Source: a virus. Taken from it: a stretch of DNA of 64,000 bases. Below the pieces are notes generated by a model. That model had not been told where the DNA came from. It was given only the letters and a program-made list of their open reading frames with translations, and did no database searches. This document shows, in pieces, positions 29,648 to 39,599 of the stretch. The stretch covers positions 1-64,000 of IMG/VR virus record IMGVR_UViG_3300050343_000215, one strand, 5' to 3'. Numbering within the stretch: position 1 is the first letter of the stretch; each line of letters opens with the position of its first letter. The position numbers and the translations under genes were made by a program.

Positions 29648-30971
29648 TTCTTTCAAAAATTTCTTCAATTTTTTTGAAAGGTTGCTTGAATAAGATATTT
29701 AAGATTTGCTGACCAATCGGTCTCTCAGTAGGAATAACAATCAAAGGTTCACCCACCTGCTGCAGATCAACTATAGTAGGTTTGTTTACAATGAATTGAG
29801 CAAGGTCATCAGTCTTGTCATTGACATTATAGTAGATATTATGTTTTACGTCAAATAATTGAGGTAAAATAATAGCACCAGTAGAATATGCATCTCTAAA
29901 GAAGTTTCCGCCCTCGCCTCTCTTTCGTTCATTCAGTCCACCTGTCTCATATTTCATAAAGTATTCTGCACCACCAACAAATTCTGCCGCTGCTTCTGAC
30001 ATTGGTCCTTCAGATTCAAAGTCATCTAACACTTGCTGAGCAACAGCAGCATTACCATTACCAAATTTCTCAACTAATAATTGCATTCCATTTGGTTTAG
30101 CAGCAATCTCAAAAATTTCTTTCTTAGTGATGCCTATATCACCATACACACTAGCGGCGGCGGTGTCAGCACTAGTCCCATAAATTGCAGCAGAATATGG
30201 CGAGAACTGTTCTTTCTCAGTAATAACAACAGATAGTGGTTGATTTCTTTTTTTAGCTCTATTCAACATAACCTGGAATGCATCAGCAACATTTTGTGCT
30301 CCAGAAGCTTCAAGTGTGGCAAGATGAGCAGCAGCAACTAAATCTGCACCAGATGCTTTAGCATCTTTTATACTTGCAGCATCTAATGGGTCAGCAGCAC
30401 CGAAAGAACCCGCTGCAGCTCCTGCTAGCACTGCTAGAAAACCTGTTAAATCTTCTTGATTGATGTTTAGATCAGTCAATTTAGTTTTAGCTTCTTCTTC
30501 CTTCTCCCCAGTTTTTTCTAATAATTTTTCAGTAAGTTTTAATTTTCTATTTTGAATTTCACGCTCAAGTAATTTGTTATAAACAATTTTATGATAATCA
30601 ACCCTTCTAACATTATTCAACAACTTAGTCAGATTAGCAAGAAGATTATTAAATCTCTCTAGCAGATAGTTCCAATCGTCCACATCCTCATCAGATACTA
30701 GAAGATTAAATTGATTTTTAGGCACTAGATAATGTTTCTTATCTTGATCAAACTCCAACATCCATGGCGGAATGATTGGCACAAACATGCTCGCAAAGTT
30801 CTTCAACTCCTGCTTAAACTTTGCAGCAGGAATTATCTTGGTAAGTGCCTTGATCTTAACACTTTTACCAGATCCAACCATCGGCGTTTCCGCCGTCATT
30901 TTTTCATAAGTTAGGTTTTTCCTTGACTGCTCCAACTGGAACGGGGATATGCCCTGACGTGGTTTAATCAT
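29586..30971 (-). CDS. Virion protein with SleB-like cell-wall hydrolase domain
   Basis: LEASG...VADAFQVMLNR...EQFSPY. Confidence 0.65.
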   Translation of the reverse strand: MIKPRQGISPFQLEQSRKNLTYEKMTAETPMVGSGKSVKIKALTKIIPAAKFKQELKNFASMFVPIIPPWMLEFDQDKKHYLVPKNQFNLLVSDEDVDDWNYLLERFNNLLANLTKLLNNVRRVDYHKIVYNKLLEREIQNRKLKLTEKLLEKTGEKEEEAKTKLTDLNINQEDLTGFLAVLAGAAAGSFGAADPLDAASIKDAKASGADLVAAAHLATLEASGAQNVADAFQVMLNRAKKRNQPLSVVITEKEQFSPYSAAIYGTSADTAAASVYGDIGITKKEIFEIAAKPNGMQLLVEKFGNGNAAVAQQVLDDFESEGPMSEAAAEFVGGAEYFMKYETGGLNERKRGEGGNFFRDAYSTGAIILPQLFDVKHNIYYNVNDKTDDLAQFIVNKPTIVDLQQVGEPLIVIPTERPIGQQILNILFKQPFKKIEEIFERNDKRAGVKSTDTYSKQYHFY

Positions 30972-32953
30972 GACTCAGTATAATAGACAGTTGGTTGATA
31001 GAATGCGACGACCTCACCACGAACATCACCAAATGAGAATTGTTCTTCTGTCTCATTAGCAACTTGCATTTGCTCATTGCCTGGTATATTATTTAACGAA
31101 GATTGATTACCAGGACTTTGGAACATTTTTTTAATGGTTAGATCAGGAACAAATGGAATTCCAGAACCCACCTTACCAGGACCAACTTTACCCTCACCAA
31201 CAATCTTAGGACCAACAATTTGTGGAGGTCCAGATAATAAAAGCATCTTCTCAATCTTCTCTCTAGTAGGAAGTCCTCTACCATTTTGTTCGGATGCTTC
31301 CCTAAGATTTCCCTCTTCTATAGCTTTACTAAAGTCAGGAGCACTATACCAGAAGTATGGTTGATTAAATCCATACAATATGACACCAGCCTGCTGTTCG
31401 GGTGTGAAGTATTTAAATTTTGGAAAATATTTTGTGTTTAAGAAATTATCATGATAGTCTCTAACTTGAAATTCAAGTAACTGATCAGCTTCCTTTTTGG
31501 TCATTGTCATATTAGGAAATACTGCTCTATTACCTTTAGTTATTTCATCAAGGAATGTGAATCCCCAACCGATAGTAGTTCTATCATTATCAACTCCAGT
31601 CTCATAAGCATGGAACACCGTATCATCAGTAATATTTTTATATCTTGGTTCTGATGGTTTCACCCACATATTTCTACCAGGAACTAATGAAGAGATTCCT
31701 TCCTCTTCCTTAATCCACTCAATACCTTTAGCAATTCCACCCTCACCCATCATATTCAGACTAAAACCAGATTGTCTCTCAACACCAAGATCATTATATC
31801 TACCATAAGGAGGATTATATAAAGGATTTAAAGATTTAATCTTCTCCTCCATCATCAACTGAGCAAAAATTGGCATTTGACTCATTGGAATAACAAATTC
31901 AGCACCAGCTTCACCGACCATCACTCTACCAACTCTTTCAATAGATCCTTCAGATCTCTGCTCCATCATTTCATCACCAGCGATCACATAATCAATGTAT
32001 GGCATGGGATTCTCTCCACCATAATCAGGTCTTACCTCAGGATGAACTTCAATATGGAAGTGAGGACCAGTAGAGAATCCAGTATTACCAGACTTACCTA
32101 ATACTTCACCAGCATCAATAGTATCTCCATCCTTCACTGCAACCTCACTGAGGTGAGCAAATCTAAACATTTTATTTAATGATGGCACCCAAGCATCTAA
32201 AAGTAATCCATAACCTACTGATGGATCATCAGCATTCTGATAACCAACATATTTAATGATAGATTTCTTTTTAAGTGCAAACATTGTCCCGACAGGAACA
32301 CCAATATCAACACCACCATGCATTTTTCCCCAACGATGACCATATGCAGAGGTTAGTTCATAACCACTAACATCAGATCCCTCTGTTTCACCTTTTGCTT
32401 TAAGTTGCCCCGCGACTGGTTGATATGGAACAATTACAATAGACTCTGCTTGATTAGAAATTCTATTTTCAAATCCTTTGGCGAGAAAGTTTGCCGCCAT
32501 AAGTCCAAGAATATTATCAGTCAAAAGTCCGCCACCAGTAGCAGGGTTAAATGAGTTGCTTAATTTATTTGTAGCAAATTTTCTGGCAGTTCTTTTGGCA
32601 CGGGAAGTTTTTTGTTTTTGATCGCTGGTCTCAAGTCCATGCAGAGATCTCTTCTGCTCAACTGCTTTCAAATAGTTTGAATGCATCTCGGAGAGAAAAT
32701 TCTCCATTGAGTCAAGATAAGTTCCCAATCTAACAAAGAATTTACTCATTGGGTTGGTAGACTTATTCTCAATAATAAGTTGCTTTACCTTCTTTTCAGG
32801 AACAACCTCAAGATTTTCTACATCATCTAACTTGAGAATTCCATCAACACTAGCAATAGCAATAGGTGTAATATTATCAGCTACAACAAAGACTTCGGAA
32901 GCAAATGCCTCCGAATCTCTCTCTATCATTTTAGTCTTTGCTTTAAACATCAA
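30968..32953 (-). CDS. Virion protein with M23 peptidase and GH24-type lysozyme domains
   Basis: HGGVD, FAHL, GNTGFSTGPHFH (M23); IKEEEG...TIGWG (lysozyme-like). Confidence 0.8.
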   Translation of the reverse strand: MMFKAKTKMIERDSEAFASEVFVVADNITPIAIASVDGILKLDDVENLEVVPEKKVKQLIIENKSTNPMSKFFVRLGTYLDSMENFLSEMHSNYLKAVEQKRSLHGLETSDQKQKTSRAKRTARKFATNKLSNSFNPATGGGLLTDNILGLMAANFLAKGFENRISNQAESIVIVPYQPVAGQLKAKGETEGSDVSGYELTSAYGHRWGKMHGGVDIGVPVGTMFALKKKSIIKYVGYQNADDPSVGYGLLLDAWVPSLNKMFRFAHLSEVAVKDGDTIDAGEVLGKSGNTGFSTGPHFHIEVHPEVRPDYGGENPMPYIDYVIAGDEMMEQRSEGSIERVGRVMVGEAGAEFVIPMSQMPIFAQLMMEEKIKSLNPLYNPPYGRYNDLGVERQSGFSLNMMGEGGIAKGIEWIKEEEGISSLVPGRNMWVKPSEPRYKNITDDTVFHAYETGVDNDRTTIGWGFTFLDEITKGNRAVFPNMTMTKKEADQLLEFQVRDYHDNFLNTKYFPKFKYFTPEQQAGVILYGFNQPYFWYSAPDFSKAIEEGNLREASEQNGRGLPTREKIEKMLLLSGPPQIVGPKIVGEGKVGPGKVGSGIPFVPDLTIKKMFQSPGNQSSLNNIPGNEQMQVANETEEQFSFGDVRGEVVAFYQPTVYYTES

Positions 32954-35340
32954 TCAATATCACTATCATGTGTAGATCTAGTAAATACACTCGTTCTCAT
33001 AAAAATATCAGGAGAATCATCACCGACAAAACTAGGTGCTTTCTTCTTACCAGGAATCTTAATATAATCAGGCGGCAGTGGTGTAATGTCTAGTTTCTGC
33101 TCATTTTTACCAGACATCATACTACCTTGAGCATTCTCAAGATTTTGTGATGGCATCGGACCCTTATATCCAGGAGCATTATAATAAGCATTGGGACCAG
33201 TAACCTGATCATACGTGGCTGTAGAAGCAGGATTAACTAATTCATTAATAATTAACTCAGCAAATAATGCAAATGGATTCAGTGCAGAAGAAGGATTGAT
33301 ACCTCTTCCTACAGCACGAACAGGTCTTTCAAATGCCTGACGAACAGCAGGAGTAGGACCAGTTTTTACCATATCAGGTGTGAATGCCTTGAAAGGATTC
33401 CATCCTTTCATTCCTGTTGCACCAGATTTAAATGCTTTATTACTTCTAGTAATTTGTCTGGCATCATCTGCCATCAAACCATCTGGTCCTCTCCATCGCG
33501 CAGTATTCTCATTAGGAACTCTAGTATTTCTACCCTTATTCCACCATCCGGCAAGACCACCATCTGCCATAGGCATAATCTTACTAGACATTCCTCTAAA
33601 ATAATTTAATGATTCACTATTATACAATTGAACATCACCATATCCACCACTTGATTTAGTTTTAATTTTTGGTATTATATCACTACCTTGTAAAAAGTCT
33701 TCTATTTTGGTTTTAGCGGCTGGTTTGTTAAGACTTTCTTGTAAACTTCTCGCATTCATATCTCTTTGAATACCTGCAGGTGCTGGTTGATCCGACAAAT
33801 TTCTAACTTGTCTTTCAATTCCTTTTTGATCTCTTTGTTTTTGGGATACTTTTCTACCAGTGCGAGTTACCTTTCCTCCACCACCTTGCATACGCGCTAA
33901 TGCTCTCTGTCTAGCAGTCATTCCTGCTCCAGGTTTCACTGGTGTAGCAATAGGTTTAGGCGCAACTGTAGTTACAGGTTTAGGAGCAGCAACAGTTGTA
34001 GCAGCAACATCATCTGCCACACCAGTGCCTGCTTTTCCTGCCTTAACAGTAATCTCAGCAACATCATCACTTAAACCAAATAATCTTTTAAGACCAGGAA
34101 CTCTAGAAACAAATGGAACTCCAAGTCTTCTAACGGTGTTTGCGATTGCAGGTGCTTTTGCGGCACCCTGTTGTAATGCACCACCGCCACTCATCATCAT
34201 GACAGTTTCTAATGCAAATTCTAAATCCTTACTGATAGGAAGACCAGTAACTTCAGCTAATGATTTAGGATTAGTAAATCCATCCAACATTGTCTGTAAG
34301 GGATTTACTGCTGGAGGTGGTTCTGAAATTACTGGTGATACTGGTGAGTATTCAGTTTGTTCACCATTAATTTCTTCATTAAGTTGTTTGAGTGCTTCCT
34401 TTGGTGTGAGTGCAGGAGCAGCTGCCTGAGATGCTGCATCAAATTCACCACTGCGTAAAAACTCTTCCGTTTGACCATTAGAATTTGAAAAAGCTAATGG
34501 TGTAGTTGCATCTGCAGATTCATTACTAGCTACCCCTGGATTTAATAAAGGTCCAAAAAGAAACGGTAGGAGTTTTAAAATATCTGGGAACGCAAACCCA
34601 GGTTCAAATTCTGGTTCTTCTTTCTTAGGAGGAATAAGAACACCGGGTGGATTAGGTTGCAGAGGAGGTTTAACCTTAGTCCCTTCGGCAGCAGGATTTA
34701 GAGATGGCTTTGGATTTTTGCTTGGTACAGGAGCGGTGCCAGGGGATCCGCCGGGTCCTCTACCACCGCCACGGCGACCGCCACCAAAAAATGGAAATCC
34801 ACCACCACCAGGCAGTTTAGGTTTCTTAGATCCACCGCCCATGGCGTCAGGATTTTCAAAATCAACAGTCTTATCTAATAGATACTCTTCAAATGTATTT
34901 TGATATAACTCTCTCTTACGCTCAAATAATTCTTTCTCTGTGAGAATCTGTACTTTCTGAAGTTTGACAACATCCTTCATCAACTTTTCAGTTGCTGCCA
35001 TCTTAGCTTCAATCGCCTTCAGATGCCCCTGGATAGTCTTATTCTTTACAGGGGGGATCTTAATATTTTCAATTTTAGGCAGATCCAGAGTCGCAGCAGC
35101 AGGCATCTCTGCCATCCCAACAACCTGATCAGGAGTAACAGGAGGATTGACTGCCTTTACAACAATCTTAGGATCTGTACTGGGGTCTAACCCAGGATTG
35201 CCAACCTTAGGTGGACCCTGTTGAGCAGCAGGTTGACCCTGTTGAGCAGCAGCAGGTTGCTGTTTATTATTAGCAGCAGGTTGCTGACCAGCAGCTGGCT
35301 GATTATTATTAGGTGGTTGATTTGCTGCGGGTACTGCCAT
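32950..35340 (-). CDS. Tape-measure / gp29-like candidate
   Basis: 796 aa, low complexity with a coiled-coil segment; lies directly after gp26/gp51 and before the hub genes. The call rests on position. Confidence 0.4.
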   Translation of the reverse strand: MAVPAANQPPNNNQPAAGQQPAANNKQQPAAAQQGQPAAQQGPPKVGNPGLDPSTDPKIVVKAVNPPVTPDQVVGMAEMPAAATLDLPKIENIKIPPVKNKTIQGHLKAIEAKMAATEKLMKDVVKLQKVQILTEKELFERKRELYQNTFEEYLLDKTVDFENPDAMGGGSKKPKLPGGGGFPFFGGGRRGGGRGPGGSPGTAPVPSKNPKPSLNPAAEGTKVKPPLQPNPPGVLIPPKKEEPEFEPGFAFPDILKLLPFLFGPLLNPGVASNESADATTPLAFSNSNGQTEEFLRSGEFDAASQAAAPALTPKEALKQLNEEINGEQTEYSPVSPVISEPPPAVNPLQTMLDGFTNPKSLAEVTGLPISKDLEFALETVMMMSGGGALQQGAAKAPAIANTVRRLGVPFVSRVPGLKRLFGLSDDVAEITVKAGKAGTGVADDVAATTVAAPKPVTTVAPKPIATPVKPGAGMTARQRALARMQGGGGKVTRTGRKVSQKQRDQKGIERQVRNLSDQPAPAGIQRDMNARSLQESLNKPAAKTKIEDFLQGSDIIPKIKTKSSGGYGDVQLYNSESLNYFRGMSSKIMPMADGGLAGWWNKGRNTRVPNENTARWRGPDGLMADDARQITRSNKAFKSGATGMKGWNPFKAFTPDMVKTGPTPAVRQAFERPVRAVGRGINPSSALNPFALFAELIINELVNPASTATYDQVTGPNAYYNAPGYKGPMPSQNLENAQGSMMSGKNEQKLDITPLPPDYIKIPGKKKAPSFVGDDSPDIFMRTSVFTRSTHDSDID
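35210..35330 (-). repeat. QQPAA/QQG low-complexity tandem repeat
   Basis: NQPAAGQQPAANNKQQPAAAQQGQPAAQQG; duplicated ACCCTGTTGAGCAGCAG. Confidence 0.8.
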
Positions 35341-35465
35341 TACTGTTGTGCTGCTCTACGTGCGTTTTCTTTTTCAATAAAATCAACTAATAAACTCACA
35401 TAGACATCCCGTTCCCACGGCATCATATTTTCTATCTCTGTCAAACTATATTTATGATGCTGCAT
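35340..35465 (-). CDS. gp51: gp51-like baseplate hub assembly catalyst (first ATG is late; frame is open back to 35531)
   Basis: HKYSLTEIENMMPWERDVY signature. Confidence 0.8.
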   Translation of the reverse strand: MQHHKYSLTEIENMMPWERDVYVSLLVDFIEKENARRAAQQ

Positions 35466-35489
35466 GAGATTAAAATTTAGTCGGAAATA

Positions 35490-35531
35490 GTTTTCCAGAT
35501 TATTCTGAAAAACCGCTATGCGAAAAAATTT
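35490..35531 (-). promoter_or_regulatory. Candidate -1 programmed frameshift signal
   Basis: A AAT TTT / T TTT TTC slippery heptamers in the gp26 frame, 8-nt spacer, 10-bp hairpin GTTTTTCAGA-ATAA-TCTGGAAAAC. Confidence 0.6.
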
Positions 35532-36229
35532 GCTAATCCCTCAATTGTGACATCAGATTTCACACCCGTCTTAGGATTAGTTACCTTTACCGTATGAGTA
35601 AGTCTAGGCATAGTTGAAAAGAATGACTGAACTTTCTGATACTGCTTAGAATTTAGTTGCTCAACAAACTCTTCAATTTCTTTCTTAGTAGAATCTGCTA
35701 CCTCCCATGTCTCTTCATCATTGTAGATAGTATCAATACATTCAACAGCATATTCAAAAGTGCTGTCAATAAGACTTTTCTCGTCATCGGGTTTCTTTTC
35801 CATGATGTATTTCATCGTAGGATACTTCATTTTAATAAAGTAACCATTCTCAAGATCAATCGTATCACTATGTTCTTTAGACTTAACTACCTGAATATCA
35901 TCAATATTGATCTCAACCTCTGCCTGTGTCTCACCATCATCAGGACAGGTGATGGAAAACTCAAGGATCTCGCCAACAGACTTGGCACGAACGTTGAGGA
36001 AGATATACTCAACATCAAATGTAGAAAGAGTATCTAAATCAATCTTAGTTTGTACGCAATTTTCAATGATTTGAATAATAGCACTGGTAACTTCATCTTG
36101 GCTTTCAGACTCCAATGCAAGAAGAAGGATTTTTTCTTCTCTAACTACAAATGGTCTGTATTTTACTTTTTTTCCTGTAGATGGAATTTTCAGTTCATGG
36201 ACAGGGGTGTTAATCTGGGGTAATGACAT
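35516..36229 (-). CDS. gp26: gp26 baseplate hub assembly protein
   Basis: KVKYRPFVVREEKILL, FLNVRAKSVGE, CP, GLANFF terminus. Confidence 0.9.
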   Translation of the reverse strand: MSLPQINTPVHELKIPSTGKKVKYRPFVVREEKILLLALESESQDEVTSAIIQIIENCVQTKIDLDTLSTFDVEYIFLNVRAKSVGEILEFSITCPDDGETQAEVEINIDDIQVVKSKEHSDTIDLENGYFIKMKYPTMKYIMEKKPDDEKSLIDSTFEYAVECIDTIYNDEETWEVADSTKKEIEEFVEQLNSKQYQKVQSFFSTMPRLTHTVKVTNPKTGVKSDVTIEGLANFFA

Positions 36230-36243
36230 AGTTCAAAAAATAA

Positions 36244-36924
36244 TTAGAATTCTGCTCCTTTTGTATCGTAAAAGATTACGACATGTTTTTCATACCTAAA
36301 GGATACTCTCAATTTATTTAGTGTGCTAGCACCATACGCTAATGGCACACTCTCAATGTTATAAGGGTATACATTAATCATATCATAATAGCATGAATTA
36401 GATCCAGAAGGACCAGTTCTATCTTTATAACTTTTAGTCACAGTCATCCTAGGACAAACCATTTCATCATAATAACGTAATCCAACAGTGTTGGTTGCCA
36501 TTCTTCTTTTTTCTTTTTCTTCTGGGATAATTTCACCACCTTCGCTATTCATGCTCTGTTCAGGAAACATGCCACCCATCCATGCTTCAAAGAATTTTGA
36601 AGGGCTGAGTTGATTAGTCTGAATAAAACTCAATCGCATATCATTATAAAGTTTAGCATGAGGATATTGAATTAATCTACCTGCATATACACCATCAACT
36701 TCCTGTGTAGCAGTAAATGTTCCCGGCAATGATGCTTCATCACACAAGAACATCATATTCTCAAATGCTCCATCTCCAGAAGTCATACCAAATCCATAAT
36801 ATTGTAATCTGGTTAGAATCTCGGCATTTTTTATAGAATCAAAGCTTAACTTTACCTCATACTCGTTAGAATATGATCCACCCTTATCAACATTGAATAT
36901 CCCTCTAAGCTTAGATATAGACAT
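36244..36924 (-). CDS. Tail-tube initiator / gp54-gp19-like protein
   Basis: FLCDEASLPG...F..W...VYPYNI...VSFRYE tube-fold pattern; start at MSISKL. Confidence 0.7.
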   Translation of the reverse strand: MSISKLRGIFNVDKGGSYSNEYEVKLSFDSIKNAEILTRLQYYGFGMTSGDGAFENMMFLCDEASLPGTFTATQEVDGVYAGRLIQYPHAKLYNDMRLSFIQTNQLSPSKFFEAWMGGMFPEQSMNSEGGEIIPEEKEKRRMATNTVGLRYYDEMVCPRMTVTKSYKDRTGPSGSNSCYYDMINVYPYNIESVPLAYGASTLNKLRVSFRYEKHVVIFYDTKGAEF

Positions 36925-36929
36925 TAACT

Positions 36930-36962
36930 CTAAATAGAAATACTTGTTCTTCATATATTTAT
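36930..36962. promoter_or_regulatory. Divergent T4-type late promoters
   Basis: CTAAATA on + (36930-36936) and ATAAATA on - (36956-36962). Confidence 0.7.
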
Positions 36963-37395
36963 GGCATATTCTGGCAAGTTCAGACCAAAGAACCCAAAGA
37001 AATATAAAGGTGATCCGAGGTTGGTAATATACAGATCATTATGGGAACTAAAATTTATGAAGTGGTGTGACGACCACGATCATATACTTGAGTGGGGCAG
37101 TGAAGAAATTGTAGTTCCCTATCGTTCTCCTTTAGATGGAAGAGTTCACAGATACTTTGTTGATTTCTATGCCAAAGTTCGTAATAAATCTGGGACAGCA
37201 AAGAAATATTTGATTGAAGTTAAACCAAAGAAACAGACAGTTGAACCTAAACTACCTAAAAGAAAAACTAAACGTTATCTCACTGAGGTTACCACATATA
37301 TCACCAATCAAGCGAAGTGGGAAGCAGCAAGGGAATGGTGTGCAGATCATGGACTTGAGTTCATCATACTCACAGAGGATCATTTAAATGTCTAA
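36961..37395 (+). CDS. gp4: gp4 head completion nuclease
   Basis: MAYSGKFRPKNPKKYKGD, YRSLWE, RYFVDF, IEVKP. Confidence 0.95.
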   Translation: MAYSGKFRPKNPKKYKGDPRLVIYRSLWELKFMKWCDDHDHILEWGSEEIVVPYRSPLDGRVHRYFVDFYAKVRNKSGTAKKYLIEVKPKKQTVEPKLPKRKTKRYLTEVTTYITNQAKWEAAREWCADHGLEFIILTEDHLNV

Positions 37396-37846
37396 GGGAT
37401 TTGGTAGTAATGACAGAACACAAGGTGGATTGGAGAAACATATCATAAAGAATTCTGGCGGTCAGAAAAAAAGTAGAGAGTGGTATCGCAGAGAAGTCTT
37501 TGAATACCTCTACGATAACATGACTGATGAGATTGAACCAGAAAAACTTTACTTCTATGAATATGATCCGAAATATAAAGAAAAGATGGATAAATATGAC
37601 ATATATCCTTTAGTATATGCCTTTGATCGTGGTAAAGATAACTTTCTAGGTTCAAATATTCATTACCTTCGTGACAGAGAGAAAGGTCCGTATGCTCTTG
37701 CCCTCCTAAATAAAAAAGCAAGGATTATTGAAAAAACAATCCATCGTTATATCTTCAAACAAGCTGATAATTTATTCTTTGAAGTGAAAGAAGAAGATTG
37801 GGAATTTATAGCATCTCTACCCATCCATAAGTTTATAGACAACTAA
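37388..37846 (+). CDS. gp2: gp2 DNA end protector (short form)
   Basis: FYEYDPK...YDIYPLV...GSNIHYL. Confidence 0.75.
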   Translation: MSKGFGSNDRTQGGLEKHIIKNSGGQKKSREWYRREVFEYLYDNMTDEIEPEKLYFYEYDPKYKEKMDKYDIYPLVYAFDRGKDNFLGSNIHYLRDREKGPYALALLNKKARIIEKTIHRYIFKQADNLFFEVKEEDWEFIASLPIHKFIDN

Positions 37847-38904
37847 TGCCATCCGCTGCTTTTTTACCATCAACGCGATATCCAGTAGAATTTTCCTCTA
37901 ATGGTCCTTCTGTGGACTATCTTGAGATGCAATTTATTAGAAGAGATTATAAGAGCACAGATATAAAATATTTTCCAGAACCTTCATTAAACAAGATCTT
38001 AGTTTACGTTCCTCAAAAAGTAACTGAAGCAATCTCGCAGCAGTTTAATCAAACTACACTTGGTGAATTAGGTAGTTTTCTTGGATCAAGAGCAGACGCT
38101 GGTGTGGCTGTTAAAAATGCACTTACAAGAACTGCTGAGCAGTTTTTATTAAATAAATCTGTTGATGTCGCTAATAAATTAGGTGCAACAAACCTCTCTG
38201 CTTCTGGATTGCTTTCAGCAACTAGTGGTGTTGTGTTCAACCCAAATCTTGAAGTTCTTTATGAAGGACCAGACTTCAGGACATTTAATTTCCAGTTTAA
38301 CTTATTCACTAAGTCAAGAGCAGATGCATCAGCAATTTTTAACATTGTAGAAACTTTAAGAGTGGCAAGTTTACCTAGTTCATCTGGCAATCCTAATACA
38401 AAAGCGATGGCAGATGTATTTACAGATACATCTGCTATTGACACTGCAACAGGGTTATTAGACATCGGTGCAGGAGCAGTAACTGGGGCTATTTCAGGTA
38501 AGATAAGCTCAGCATCCACTGCTGCAAAAGGAGGTAAACAGGGAGCTTTAGATAAACTTTCAGGTCTTTTTGCTCCAGCAGGAACGCTCCTAGGAGCTGC
38601 TGCAACTGCTGGCGGTTTCTTATTTAACGGTGGTTCTAGATTTATCAAACAACCTCCATTCATACTTCTTACATATAAGAGAGGAGCAGATGATCATCCT
38701 TTTATCAAACCACTGCTCCCATGCGCTATTAATCAGATTAATTTTGATTTTACGCCAACTGGAAACTACACTACAGTAGGTGAATTTAATGCTGACCCAA
38801 AGGCAACTACTGTTGGAGTCACAATTACTATGAATCTCACTGAAGTGACAAATCTATTTGCTGATAAAATGTTCACCGAAAGAGCACCAGGAGTCAAAAG
38901 CTAA
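37846..38904 (+). CDS. gp48: gp48 baseplate tail-tube cap
   Basis: VFNPNLEVLYEGPDFRTFNFQF; position before gp53. Confidence 0.85.
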   Translation: MPSAAFLPSTRYPVEFSSNGPSVDYLEMQFIRRDYKSTDIKYFPEPSLNKILVYVPQKVTEAISQQFNQTTLGELGSFLGSRADAGVAVKNALTRTAEQFLLNKSVDVANKLGATNLSASGLLSATSGVVFNPNLEVLYEGPDFRTFNFQFNLFTKSRADASAIFNIVETLRVASLPSSSGNPNTKAMADVFTDTSAIDTATGLLDIGAGAVTGAISGKISSASTAAKGGKQGALDKLSGLFAPAGTLLGAAATAGGFLFNGGSRFIKQPPFILLTYKRGADDHPFIKPLLPCAINQINFDFTPTGNYTTVGEFNADPKATTVGVTITMNLTEVTNLFADKMFTERAPGVKS

Positions 38905-39599
38905 TGCCCGGATTTTTCTCATATCTACCAAAAATAGAATATACTCCAACTAGAACTAAATTTCAGTTTACTAATCAAGATTTTGTAGTCGCTGTAAATA
39001 TTTTTAAAGGATTGAGTATTAATAATTCTGTATATACTACAGATTTATTTAAAGAATTTCAATTAAGAGATGGTGTTAGACCGGACCAAGTTGCTGAGGC
39101 AGTTTATGGTGATTCTAGTTATGATTGGGTTATTTTACTAACTAATAAAATTGTTGACCTTAAAAATGATTGGCCATTAAGTAATTCAGAATTTGAAAAA
39201 CTTATTACTAAAAAATATACTAATCCACACTTAGTAAAAAACTACCTTACCAAAGAAGTCAAAAATGACATTGGTGAGATAATTCTTCCTAGTGGATTAG
39301 AAGTATATTATAATCCAAACGATCAAGACTCATTTAAAATTACATACATTAAATCATATAATCCAATAGTAGAAGAAACTGAGAATGGTGCAACATTATT
39401 GACATCAATTACTTATTATGAGTGGGAACAACAACTCAATGAAGAAAAAAGAGTATTGCAAGTTCTTAAACCAGATTATCTTGAGACCTTTGTAAAAATC
39501 TTCAATGCATCAGCAAATTATATGCGTGATGTAAAAGCTGATGCTGGAATAAAGCAAACTTTAAACAAAACTAGCATCTTTAACAATATTACTCTATAA
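38904..39599 (+). CDS. gp53: gp53 baseplate wedge subunit
   Basis: FFSYLPKIEY, RPDQVAEAVYGD..YDWVILLTN, WPL, YEWEQQLNEEKR. Confidence 0.9.
   Translation: MPGFFSYLPKIEYTPTRTKFQFTNQDFVVAVNIFKGLSINNSVYTTDLFKEFQLRDGVRPDQVAEAVYGDSSYDWVILLTNKIVDLKNDWPLSNSEFEKLITKKYTNPHLVKNYLTKEVKNDIGEIILPSGLEVYYNPNDQDSFKITYIKSYNPIVEETENGATLLTSITYYEWEQQLNEEKRVLQVLKPDYLETFVKIFNASANYMRDVKADAGIKQTLNKTSIFNNITL

Follow-up and report, generated by a model that had tools for sequence, protein, structure and literature searches.

A probable programmed -1 frameshift yields short and long tail chaperones from one gp26-like gene of an uncultured marine T4-like phage

The IMG/VR record IMGVR_UViG_3300050343_000215 is a viral sequence of 177,686 base pairs (bp) with an estimated completeness of 95%. 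Here we report on a gp26-like gene of this phage and on the reading frame that follows it, as found in the window, by which we mean the whole stretch of DNA that was analysed, positions 1 to 64,000 of the record (64,000 nucleotides, nt). It is likely that this one gene gives rise, by a programmed -1 ribosomal frameshift, to two tail chaperones, a short form of 237 amino acids (aa) and a long form of 296 aa that carries a gp51-like tail. A fusion of gp26 to gp51 of this kind, like that of lambda G and GT, had been proposed in an original prediction made from the sequence of the window, and it is supported by the comparative, evolutionary and structural evidence given here.

The gp26-like open reading frame (ORF) runs on the minus strand and ends GCA AAT TTT TTC GCA TAG, with its stop codon at 35518-35516. 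Two overlapping slippery heptamers stand in the gp26 frame at this end, as had been described. T_TTT_TTC is the conserved one; A_AAT_TTT was seen only where the preceding codons are NNA AAT, in the window's clade and in the L028 clade (L028-L033; labels of this form are our own locus labels), and is not conserved elsewhere. Read from the T-run, the -1 frame gives FFRIAVFQNNLENYFRLNFNL and then M, its first ATG lying at 35465-35463, and after that ATG 40 further codons lead to the stop at 35342-35340. The expectation of an open -1 frame whose first ATG comes only later was thus correct, with 60 open codons and the ATG at codon +21. A product fused through the slip site would have 236 + 60 = 296 aa, against 237 aa for gp26 alone. 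The predicted zero-frame C-terminal peptide of the gp26-like protein is SDVTIEGLANFFA, and the predicted tryptic junction peptide of the fusion is SDVTIEGLANFFR, followed by IAVFQNNLENYFR.

Both parts of the proposed fusion match known phage families. The gp26-like protein matches PF12322 (T4_baseplate) in Pfam over residues 10-237, with an expectation value (E) of 1.1e-72, and phrog_150, 'baseplate hub', in PHROGs (E 4.5e-78). Residues 2-63 of the -1 translation, the part before the ATG included, match phrog_634 ('baseplate hub assembly catalyst', E 3.2e-28), and the translation also matches positions 230-276 of phrog_150. Taken alone, the gp51-like tail is predicted to form a small helical domain, with a predicted local distance difference test score (pLDDT) of 71.5. 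Apart from the gp26-like gene, the 177,686-bp record has no PF12322 match, so the genome appears to hold no separate long form, and the long form would be reachable only by a frame change. A PF12322 domain, a gp51-type tail in the long form and a T4-type neighbourhood together place the gene in the T4 gp26/gp51 family.

The stretch between the heptamer and the first ATG of the -1 frame appears to evolve as coding sequence. Codon-position counts were made on the window's clade, which comprises 12 haplotypes. Over the 60 nt from heptamer to ATG, variation at the first, second and third positions of the -1-frame codons is 5:1:13 (binomial P = 0.0019), and the same pattern is found after the ATG (6:2:19). 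Four residues of the tail, L11, Y14, N18 and F19, are invariant across clades and are located upstream of the ATG in the window. The stretch from heptamer to ATG holds no ATG, GTG or TTG in the window, and the 12 nt that precede the ATG (AATTTTAATCTC) contain no G and no purine-rich ribosome-binding site. Because the stretch before the ATG is constrained, and has neither a start codon nor such a binding site, translation from gp26 would be the simplest route into the tail.

For comparison across relatives, 42 loci were collapsed into 19 lineages at a gp26 identity of <=80%, a set that spans uncultured marine contigs, KVP40, Aeromonas phage PX29, Sinorhizobium phage phiN3 and Stenotrophomonas phage Yut3. 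The nearest cultured relatives of the window are T4-like cyanophages, at about 65% nucleotide and about 53% gp26 identity, and uncultured marine contigs are closer, with up to 93% identity. An in-frame T_TTT_TTN is present in 18 of the 19 lineages, and in 17 of them it stands in identical phase and exactly 10 nt before the stop. An open -1 frame of 56-66 codons, encoding the same conserved tail, is found in 17/19. The codon preceding the T-run encodes N, S, A or D, always with T as its third base, and almost every lineage spells the second Phe TTC, despite a TTT share of 72% among Phe codons. The L028 clade has Leu (TTA) in place of the second Phe, with the T-run retained, and the first -1 codon still encodes Arg, AGA replacing CGN. 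The alignment of gp26 3' ends that had been put forward as a check, for heptamer, -1 overlap and hairpin, returned the first two and no consensus for the third.

T4 itself offers an independent view of the two parts. T4 gp26 (208 aa) consists of the PF12322 domain alone, and T4 gp51 (249 aa) combines PF12322 at residues 1-201 (E 3.9e-52) with a tail that matches phrog_634. In the alignment this tail begins just past the Phe-Phe position and is collinear with the tail of the window (gp51 residues ~200-249); the spacing to a conserved YSL motif is 23 residues in T4 gp51 and 24 in the -1 product of the window. T4 gp51 can be read as a natural in-frame version of the long form, a gp26 paralog bearing the same tail. 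Genes 26 and 51 of T4 are divergent, so a frameshift cannot join them there. T4 gp26 ends ...GLKEFFELL (L004:5803-5830), its Phe-Phe spelled TTC TTT with no T-run, and T4 is the sole lineage examined that has a separate full-length long form and the one in which the run is broken in this way. The two systems share the PF12322 family, the phrog_634 tail, T4-type neighbours and short and long forms with a common N-terminal domain; they differ in that T4 has a divergent gene for each form and lacks a T-run in gene 26, whereas the phage of the window would recode one gene and reach its long form only by a frame change.

A predicted structure of the gp26-like protein adds supporting evidence for a chaperone role. 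The AlphaFold model has a pLDDT of 84. In an exhaustive VIA-align search with it the top three matches, all over model residues 1-95 and each with 80-85 residues aligned, were 3fgx_B (Z 7.8), YqbN (3klu_A, Z 7.7) and the tail assembly chaperone of HK97 (2ob9_B, Z 7.6), followed by a protein of a phage-inducible chromosomal island (PICI)-like element (Z 5.4) and the first unrelated chain (Z 4.2). HK97 gp13 and YqbN are named as members of the tail assembly chaperone (TAC) family (PMC9603447). The Z values of the chaperone matches are below 8, in the tool's ambiguous range, where a match could reflect a common arrangement, so the chaperone-like fold predicted for residues 1-95 is taken as supporting evidence and not as proof.

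Two elements near the heptamer may act as stimulators. The first is a downstream hairpin, which the original prediction had drawn as a 10-bp stem at 35513-35490, 8 nt after the heptamer; it is the same stem as the 11-bp one given here, at 7 nt. It ranks only among the most stable 2.6% of 40-nt windows in its neighbourhood. When a test region of 40 nt, beginning 2 nt past the heptamer, was ranked for stability within its own locus, it came out in the top 0-3% in eight of the ten marine lineages, whose stems differ in sequence and start 5-7 nt past the heptamer. The second element is a GAGGG run, Shine-Dalgarno (SD)-like, upstream of the heptamer. GAGG(G) stands at this offset in 13 of the 18 heptamer-bearing lineages and is absent in 5, and Glu is spelled GAG in 11 of 14 lineages with the residues EGL, compared with 42% GAG usage in the window's genes. 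Since GAGGG also encodes conserved Glu-Gly, an SD-like role is suggestive only. We tentatively put forward, as a possibility that we hold to be rather doubtful, that the chaperone site of marine T4-like phages is a three-part cassette made up of GAGGG 9 nt upstream, U_UUU_UUC and a hairpin 5-7 nt downstream whose sequence varies by lineage while its place is kept, with enteric and vibrio relatives lacking the hairpin and single lineages having switched direction (S-SCSM1) or lost the heptamer (Kuttervirus).

Under the ribosomal mechanism, most ribosomes would stop at the gp26 stop codon and release the 237-aa protein. A minority would slip back one base, with tRNA-Phe on UUU_UUC within U_UUU_UUC, and would then read CGC AUA GCG onward, adding the helical tail of 60 aa and giving a long form that ends ...GLANFF-RIAVFQ...AAQQ. 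Slipping would be made more frequent by a pause of the ribosome at the hairpin, and perhaps at GAGGG, as at sites of the dnaX type. By analogy to lambda G/GT and T4 gp26/gp51, the short and long forms may act jointly on a tail-length or hub protein during nucleation of the tube, and would not remain in the virion. The fusion protein is very probably made; it, its abundance and its partners are predictions.

The coordinates of the features discussed are collected in Table 1.

Table 1. Features of the gp26-like locus and its surroundings, in positions of the window
Feature	Position	Strand	Basis
gp26-like gene, putative short chaperone form (TAC-N analogue), 237 aa	35516-36229	minus	Pfam, PHROG matches
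Slippery heptamer U_UUU_UUC, in gp26 frame, 10 nt before stop	35522-35528	minus	conserved heptamer
Overlapping heptamer A_AAU_UUU, in gp26 frame	35525-35531	minus	clade-specific
GAGGG, Shine-Dalgarno-like run ending 9 nt upstream of heptamer, possible stimulator	35538-35542	minus	sequence
Downstream hairpin, 11-bp stem including terminal G-U, loop AUAA, 7 nt past heptamer	35489-35514	minus	-11.4 kcal/mol
gp51-like tail, 60 codons read in -1 frame only, putative lambda T domain analogue	35343-35522	minus	phrog_634
First ATG/GTG/TTG of -1 frame, 21 codons past heptamer	35463-35465	minus	sequence
ORF of 796 aa following the tail, P-, G- and A-rich, tape-measure candidate	32950-35340	minus	position only
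ORF of 661 aa with M23 peptidase domain	30968-32953	minus	domain match (E 2.4e-13), weak lysozyme match
Tail tube paralogue, upstream gene	36244-36954	minus	PF23849 Phage_TTP_2 (E 7.6e-29); phrog_45
gp4, gp2, gp48 and gp53 homologues (T4-type baseplate/tail)	36961-39599	plus	Pfam, PHROGs

Several observations weigh against a programmed ribosomal slip, or against parts of it. All support for the fusion protein comes from sequence and predicted structure. In AT-rich DNA such as this the heptamer itself is common, as the counts given below show, and taken alone it is within chance. Foldseek gave no match in the PDB at E <=0.001, 2ob9 being returned at E 0.97 with a probability of 0.57. RNAalifold found no consensus structure and no covariation on 14 junctions, and by this measure the hairpins are not positionally conserved, so that stability within each lineage is what carries the hairpin claim, and KVP40, PX29, phiN3 and the Kuttervirus BSP101 have no notable downstream hairpin. 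In Salmonella phage BSP101 (L038:3715-3905) the 3' end of gp26, GAG ATT TTC ATT TAA, holds no canonical heptamer; despite this its -1 frame leads directly to a tail of the gp51-like kind, and the annotated start of a 42-aa 'hypothetical protein' comes after the first conserved residues of that tail. In Synechococcus phage S-SCSM1 (NC_070962.1; L001:4660-4720) the +1 frame holds the tail, the only such case among the 19 lineages. About 10 extra nt follow the gp26 stop there, the -1 frame stops after 4 codons (FFRLES), and the +1 frame is open from the T-run into a tail that has its own ATG; a forward slip, an independent start of the tail or an error in the sequence may explain this exception. 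Finally, about half of the lineages have an ATG 4-5 codons past the heptamer, from which their tails could be started separately. An independent start for gp51, and stops in the -1 overlap, had been named beforehand as signs against a frameshift: the first is found at +4/+5 in about half of the lineages, and the second in S-SCSM1.

The frame could also be changed at the level of the transcript, by RNA polymerase adding one U on the run of six, which would yield the same 296-aa protein. With an identical product, all the comparative evidence is equally consistent with such slippage, and this too counts against the ribosomal reading; the conserved element is, moreover, a homopolymer run. This run, however, is T6 in most lineages, T7 in phiN3 and never longer than 7 in any of the 19, although longer runs would fit Phe-Phe coding. 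Compared with known sites of transcriptional slippage in bacteria and phages, whose runs are of about 8-9 bases or longer, six is short. The short run (6-7) favours a slip of the ribosome, as do the hairpin that starts 5-7 nt past the heptamer and the SD-like run that ends 9 nt ahead of it, both usual stimulators of ribosomal slipping, and we regard polymerase slippage as unlikely.

It is also improbable, in our judgement, that no fusion is made and that the gp51-like tail is a separate small protein, re-initiated at a codon of its own after the gp26 stop. Such an arrangement is what the databases imply, two separate coding sequences (CDS) being annotated in 13/13 GenBank or RefSeq records examined, and it would suit the early ATG found in about half of the lineages and the S-SCSM1 tail, which is outside the -1 frame and has its own ATG. 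Against this, the first start codon comes only 8-21 codons into the conserved tail in the window, L028, Syn9/S-P4 and L034 clades; in the window's clade the codons ahead of it are constrained and include invariant residues; and the window's ATG is not preceded by a purine-rich ribosome-binding site. The Arg codon directly after the heptamer, upstream of all candidate starts, is kept through the CGN-to-AGA change, and in T4 gp51 the tail is seen to function at the C-terminal end of a domain of the gp26 type.

That the T-run is a coincidence, being simply the codons of a conserved Phe-Phe next to a -1 frame left open by accident in AT-rich DNA, would fit the abundance of the heptamer in the window (30 copies of TTTTTTC against 21 expected, so that the heptamer alone is within chance) and the codon usage there (TTT 72%, AAT 84%), by which N-F-F would yield the heptamer by chance about 60% of the time per lineage; it is hardly credible, and appears already contradicted, given the phrog_634 match (E 3e-28), the collinearity with T4, the codon-position pattern, a -1 frame of 56-66 codons with a conserved domain open in 17/19 lineages, a second Phe that is nearly always TTC against 72% TTT, and a run that T4 breaks where it is not needed. 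What goes beyond chance is that relatives conserve the position, the phase and the -1 reading frame.

The probable ribosomal frameshift can be set beside two known systems. A passage in PMC5313236 describes the -1 frameshift of tail assembly chaperone genes as conserved in long-tailed phages, citing Levin et al. 1993 and Xu et al. 2004. Like lambda G/GT, the window has an in-frame X_XXY_YYZ heptamer shortly ahead of the stop codon that closes the upstream ORF, a -1 extension that would contribute a small domain at the C-terminus, a place for the gene after the tube gene and before a large gene, and a predicted N-terminal chaperone fold that resembles that of HK97 gp13 and YqbN. A conserved slip heptamer, an open -1 extension without a start, and a predicted chaperone fold are thus features of the G/GT type found here. 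For a pair of this type both proteins would further be expected at a fixed low ratio, binding the tape measure and tube proteins and missing from virions. Unlike lambda G, the window's gp26 is larger (237 aa), with an extra domain after residue 95, and the two show no detectable sequence similarity; the downstream gene of the window is a tape-measure candidate by position only. The lambda heptamer is G_GGA_AAG, compared with U_UUU_UUC in the window.

The -1 site of Escherichia coli dnaX consists of an SD-like element, a heptamer and a downstream stem-loop. The layout in the window is similar, with GAGGG 9 nt upstream of a canonical heptamer and a hairpin 7 nt downstream. It differs in that the SD-like run doubles as Glu-Gly codons and is missing in 5/18 heptamer lineages, in that the hairpin is AU-rich, weaker and not conserved outside marine clades, and in that the shifted product would be longer in the phage of the window and is shorter in dnaX.

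Around the gp26-like gene, the gene order matches that of P-SSM2, S-SCSM1, KVP40, PX29 and phiN3. The gene at the position of the tail tube paralogue is labelled 54 or tail tube in the records of PX29, KVP40 and phiN3. A search of Rfam at the junction of gp26 and tail returned no match, and no promoter-like or terminator-like sites were found on the minus strand between the two. The ORF that follows the tail begins with an ATG that overlaps the tail stop (35342-35340) as TAATG, an overlap noted earlier and seen again here. This ORF of 796 aa has no match in Pfam, PHROGs, a tblastn search against 50,697 phage records or the named clusters of the protein Atlas, and BLASTP showed it to be similar neither to T4 gp29 nor to the ORFs that occupy its position in six other phages. 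Those ORFs, in KVP40, P-SSM2, S-SCSM1, PX29, Yut3 and phiN3, match neither one another nor T4 gp29. The genome slot evolves very fast, and a tape-measure role for the 796-aa ORF is a guess from its position. The 661-aa ORF with the M23 domain is no less a candidate for the tape measure, or it may encode a cell-wall hydrolase carried in the virion.

The suggestion that gp26/gp51 might be an unrecognised G/GT equivalent in T4-type phages has been overtaken. Vladimirov, Gautam and Davidson (Virology 2022;566:9-15, PMID 34826709), as cited in PMC12846349, named T4 gp26 and gp51 as the tail assembly chaperones of T4-like phages; an earlier listing had called them 'hub assembly chaperones' (PMC3004832), and a passage in PMC10885494, which also cites the 2022 paper, states that some T4-like phages have one short gene and one longer fused gene instead of frameshifting. 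Going by these citations, the principle is published, and because gp26/gp51 are already named there as T4-like tail chaperones, the site in the window adds one more example to a known kind. Literature searches on gp26, gp51, the baseplate hub and frameshifting or chaperones in cyanophages returned no statement of a slip, and the 2022 paper surfaced through the reference list of PMC12846349. The three-part signal architecture may be unpublished; some or all of it could be contained in the 2022 paper.

In the 13 public records (L001-L003, L035-L044), the tail is always given as a separate CDS of 40-60 aa, labelled 'baseplate hub assembly catalyst' or hypothetical. Its annotated starts are inconsistent, with ATG, TTG or GTG at varying and often arbitrary positions, and a joined or slippage feature is present in 0/13. 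Hundreds of phage records could be corrected by a simple annotation rule: a PF12322 gene whose end reads NNT TTT TTN, then a single codon, then the stop, and whose tail is in the -1 frame. If the three-part cassette is true, the gp26 family would provide a natural series for studying the evolution of frameshift signals. In biological terms the finding is confirmatory: a deep-branching uncultured marine T4-like phage would recode one gene for both chaperones, where T4 uses two.

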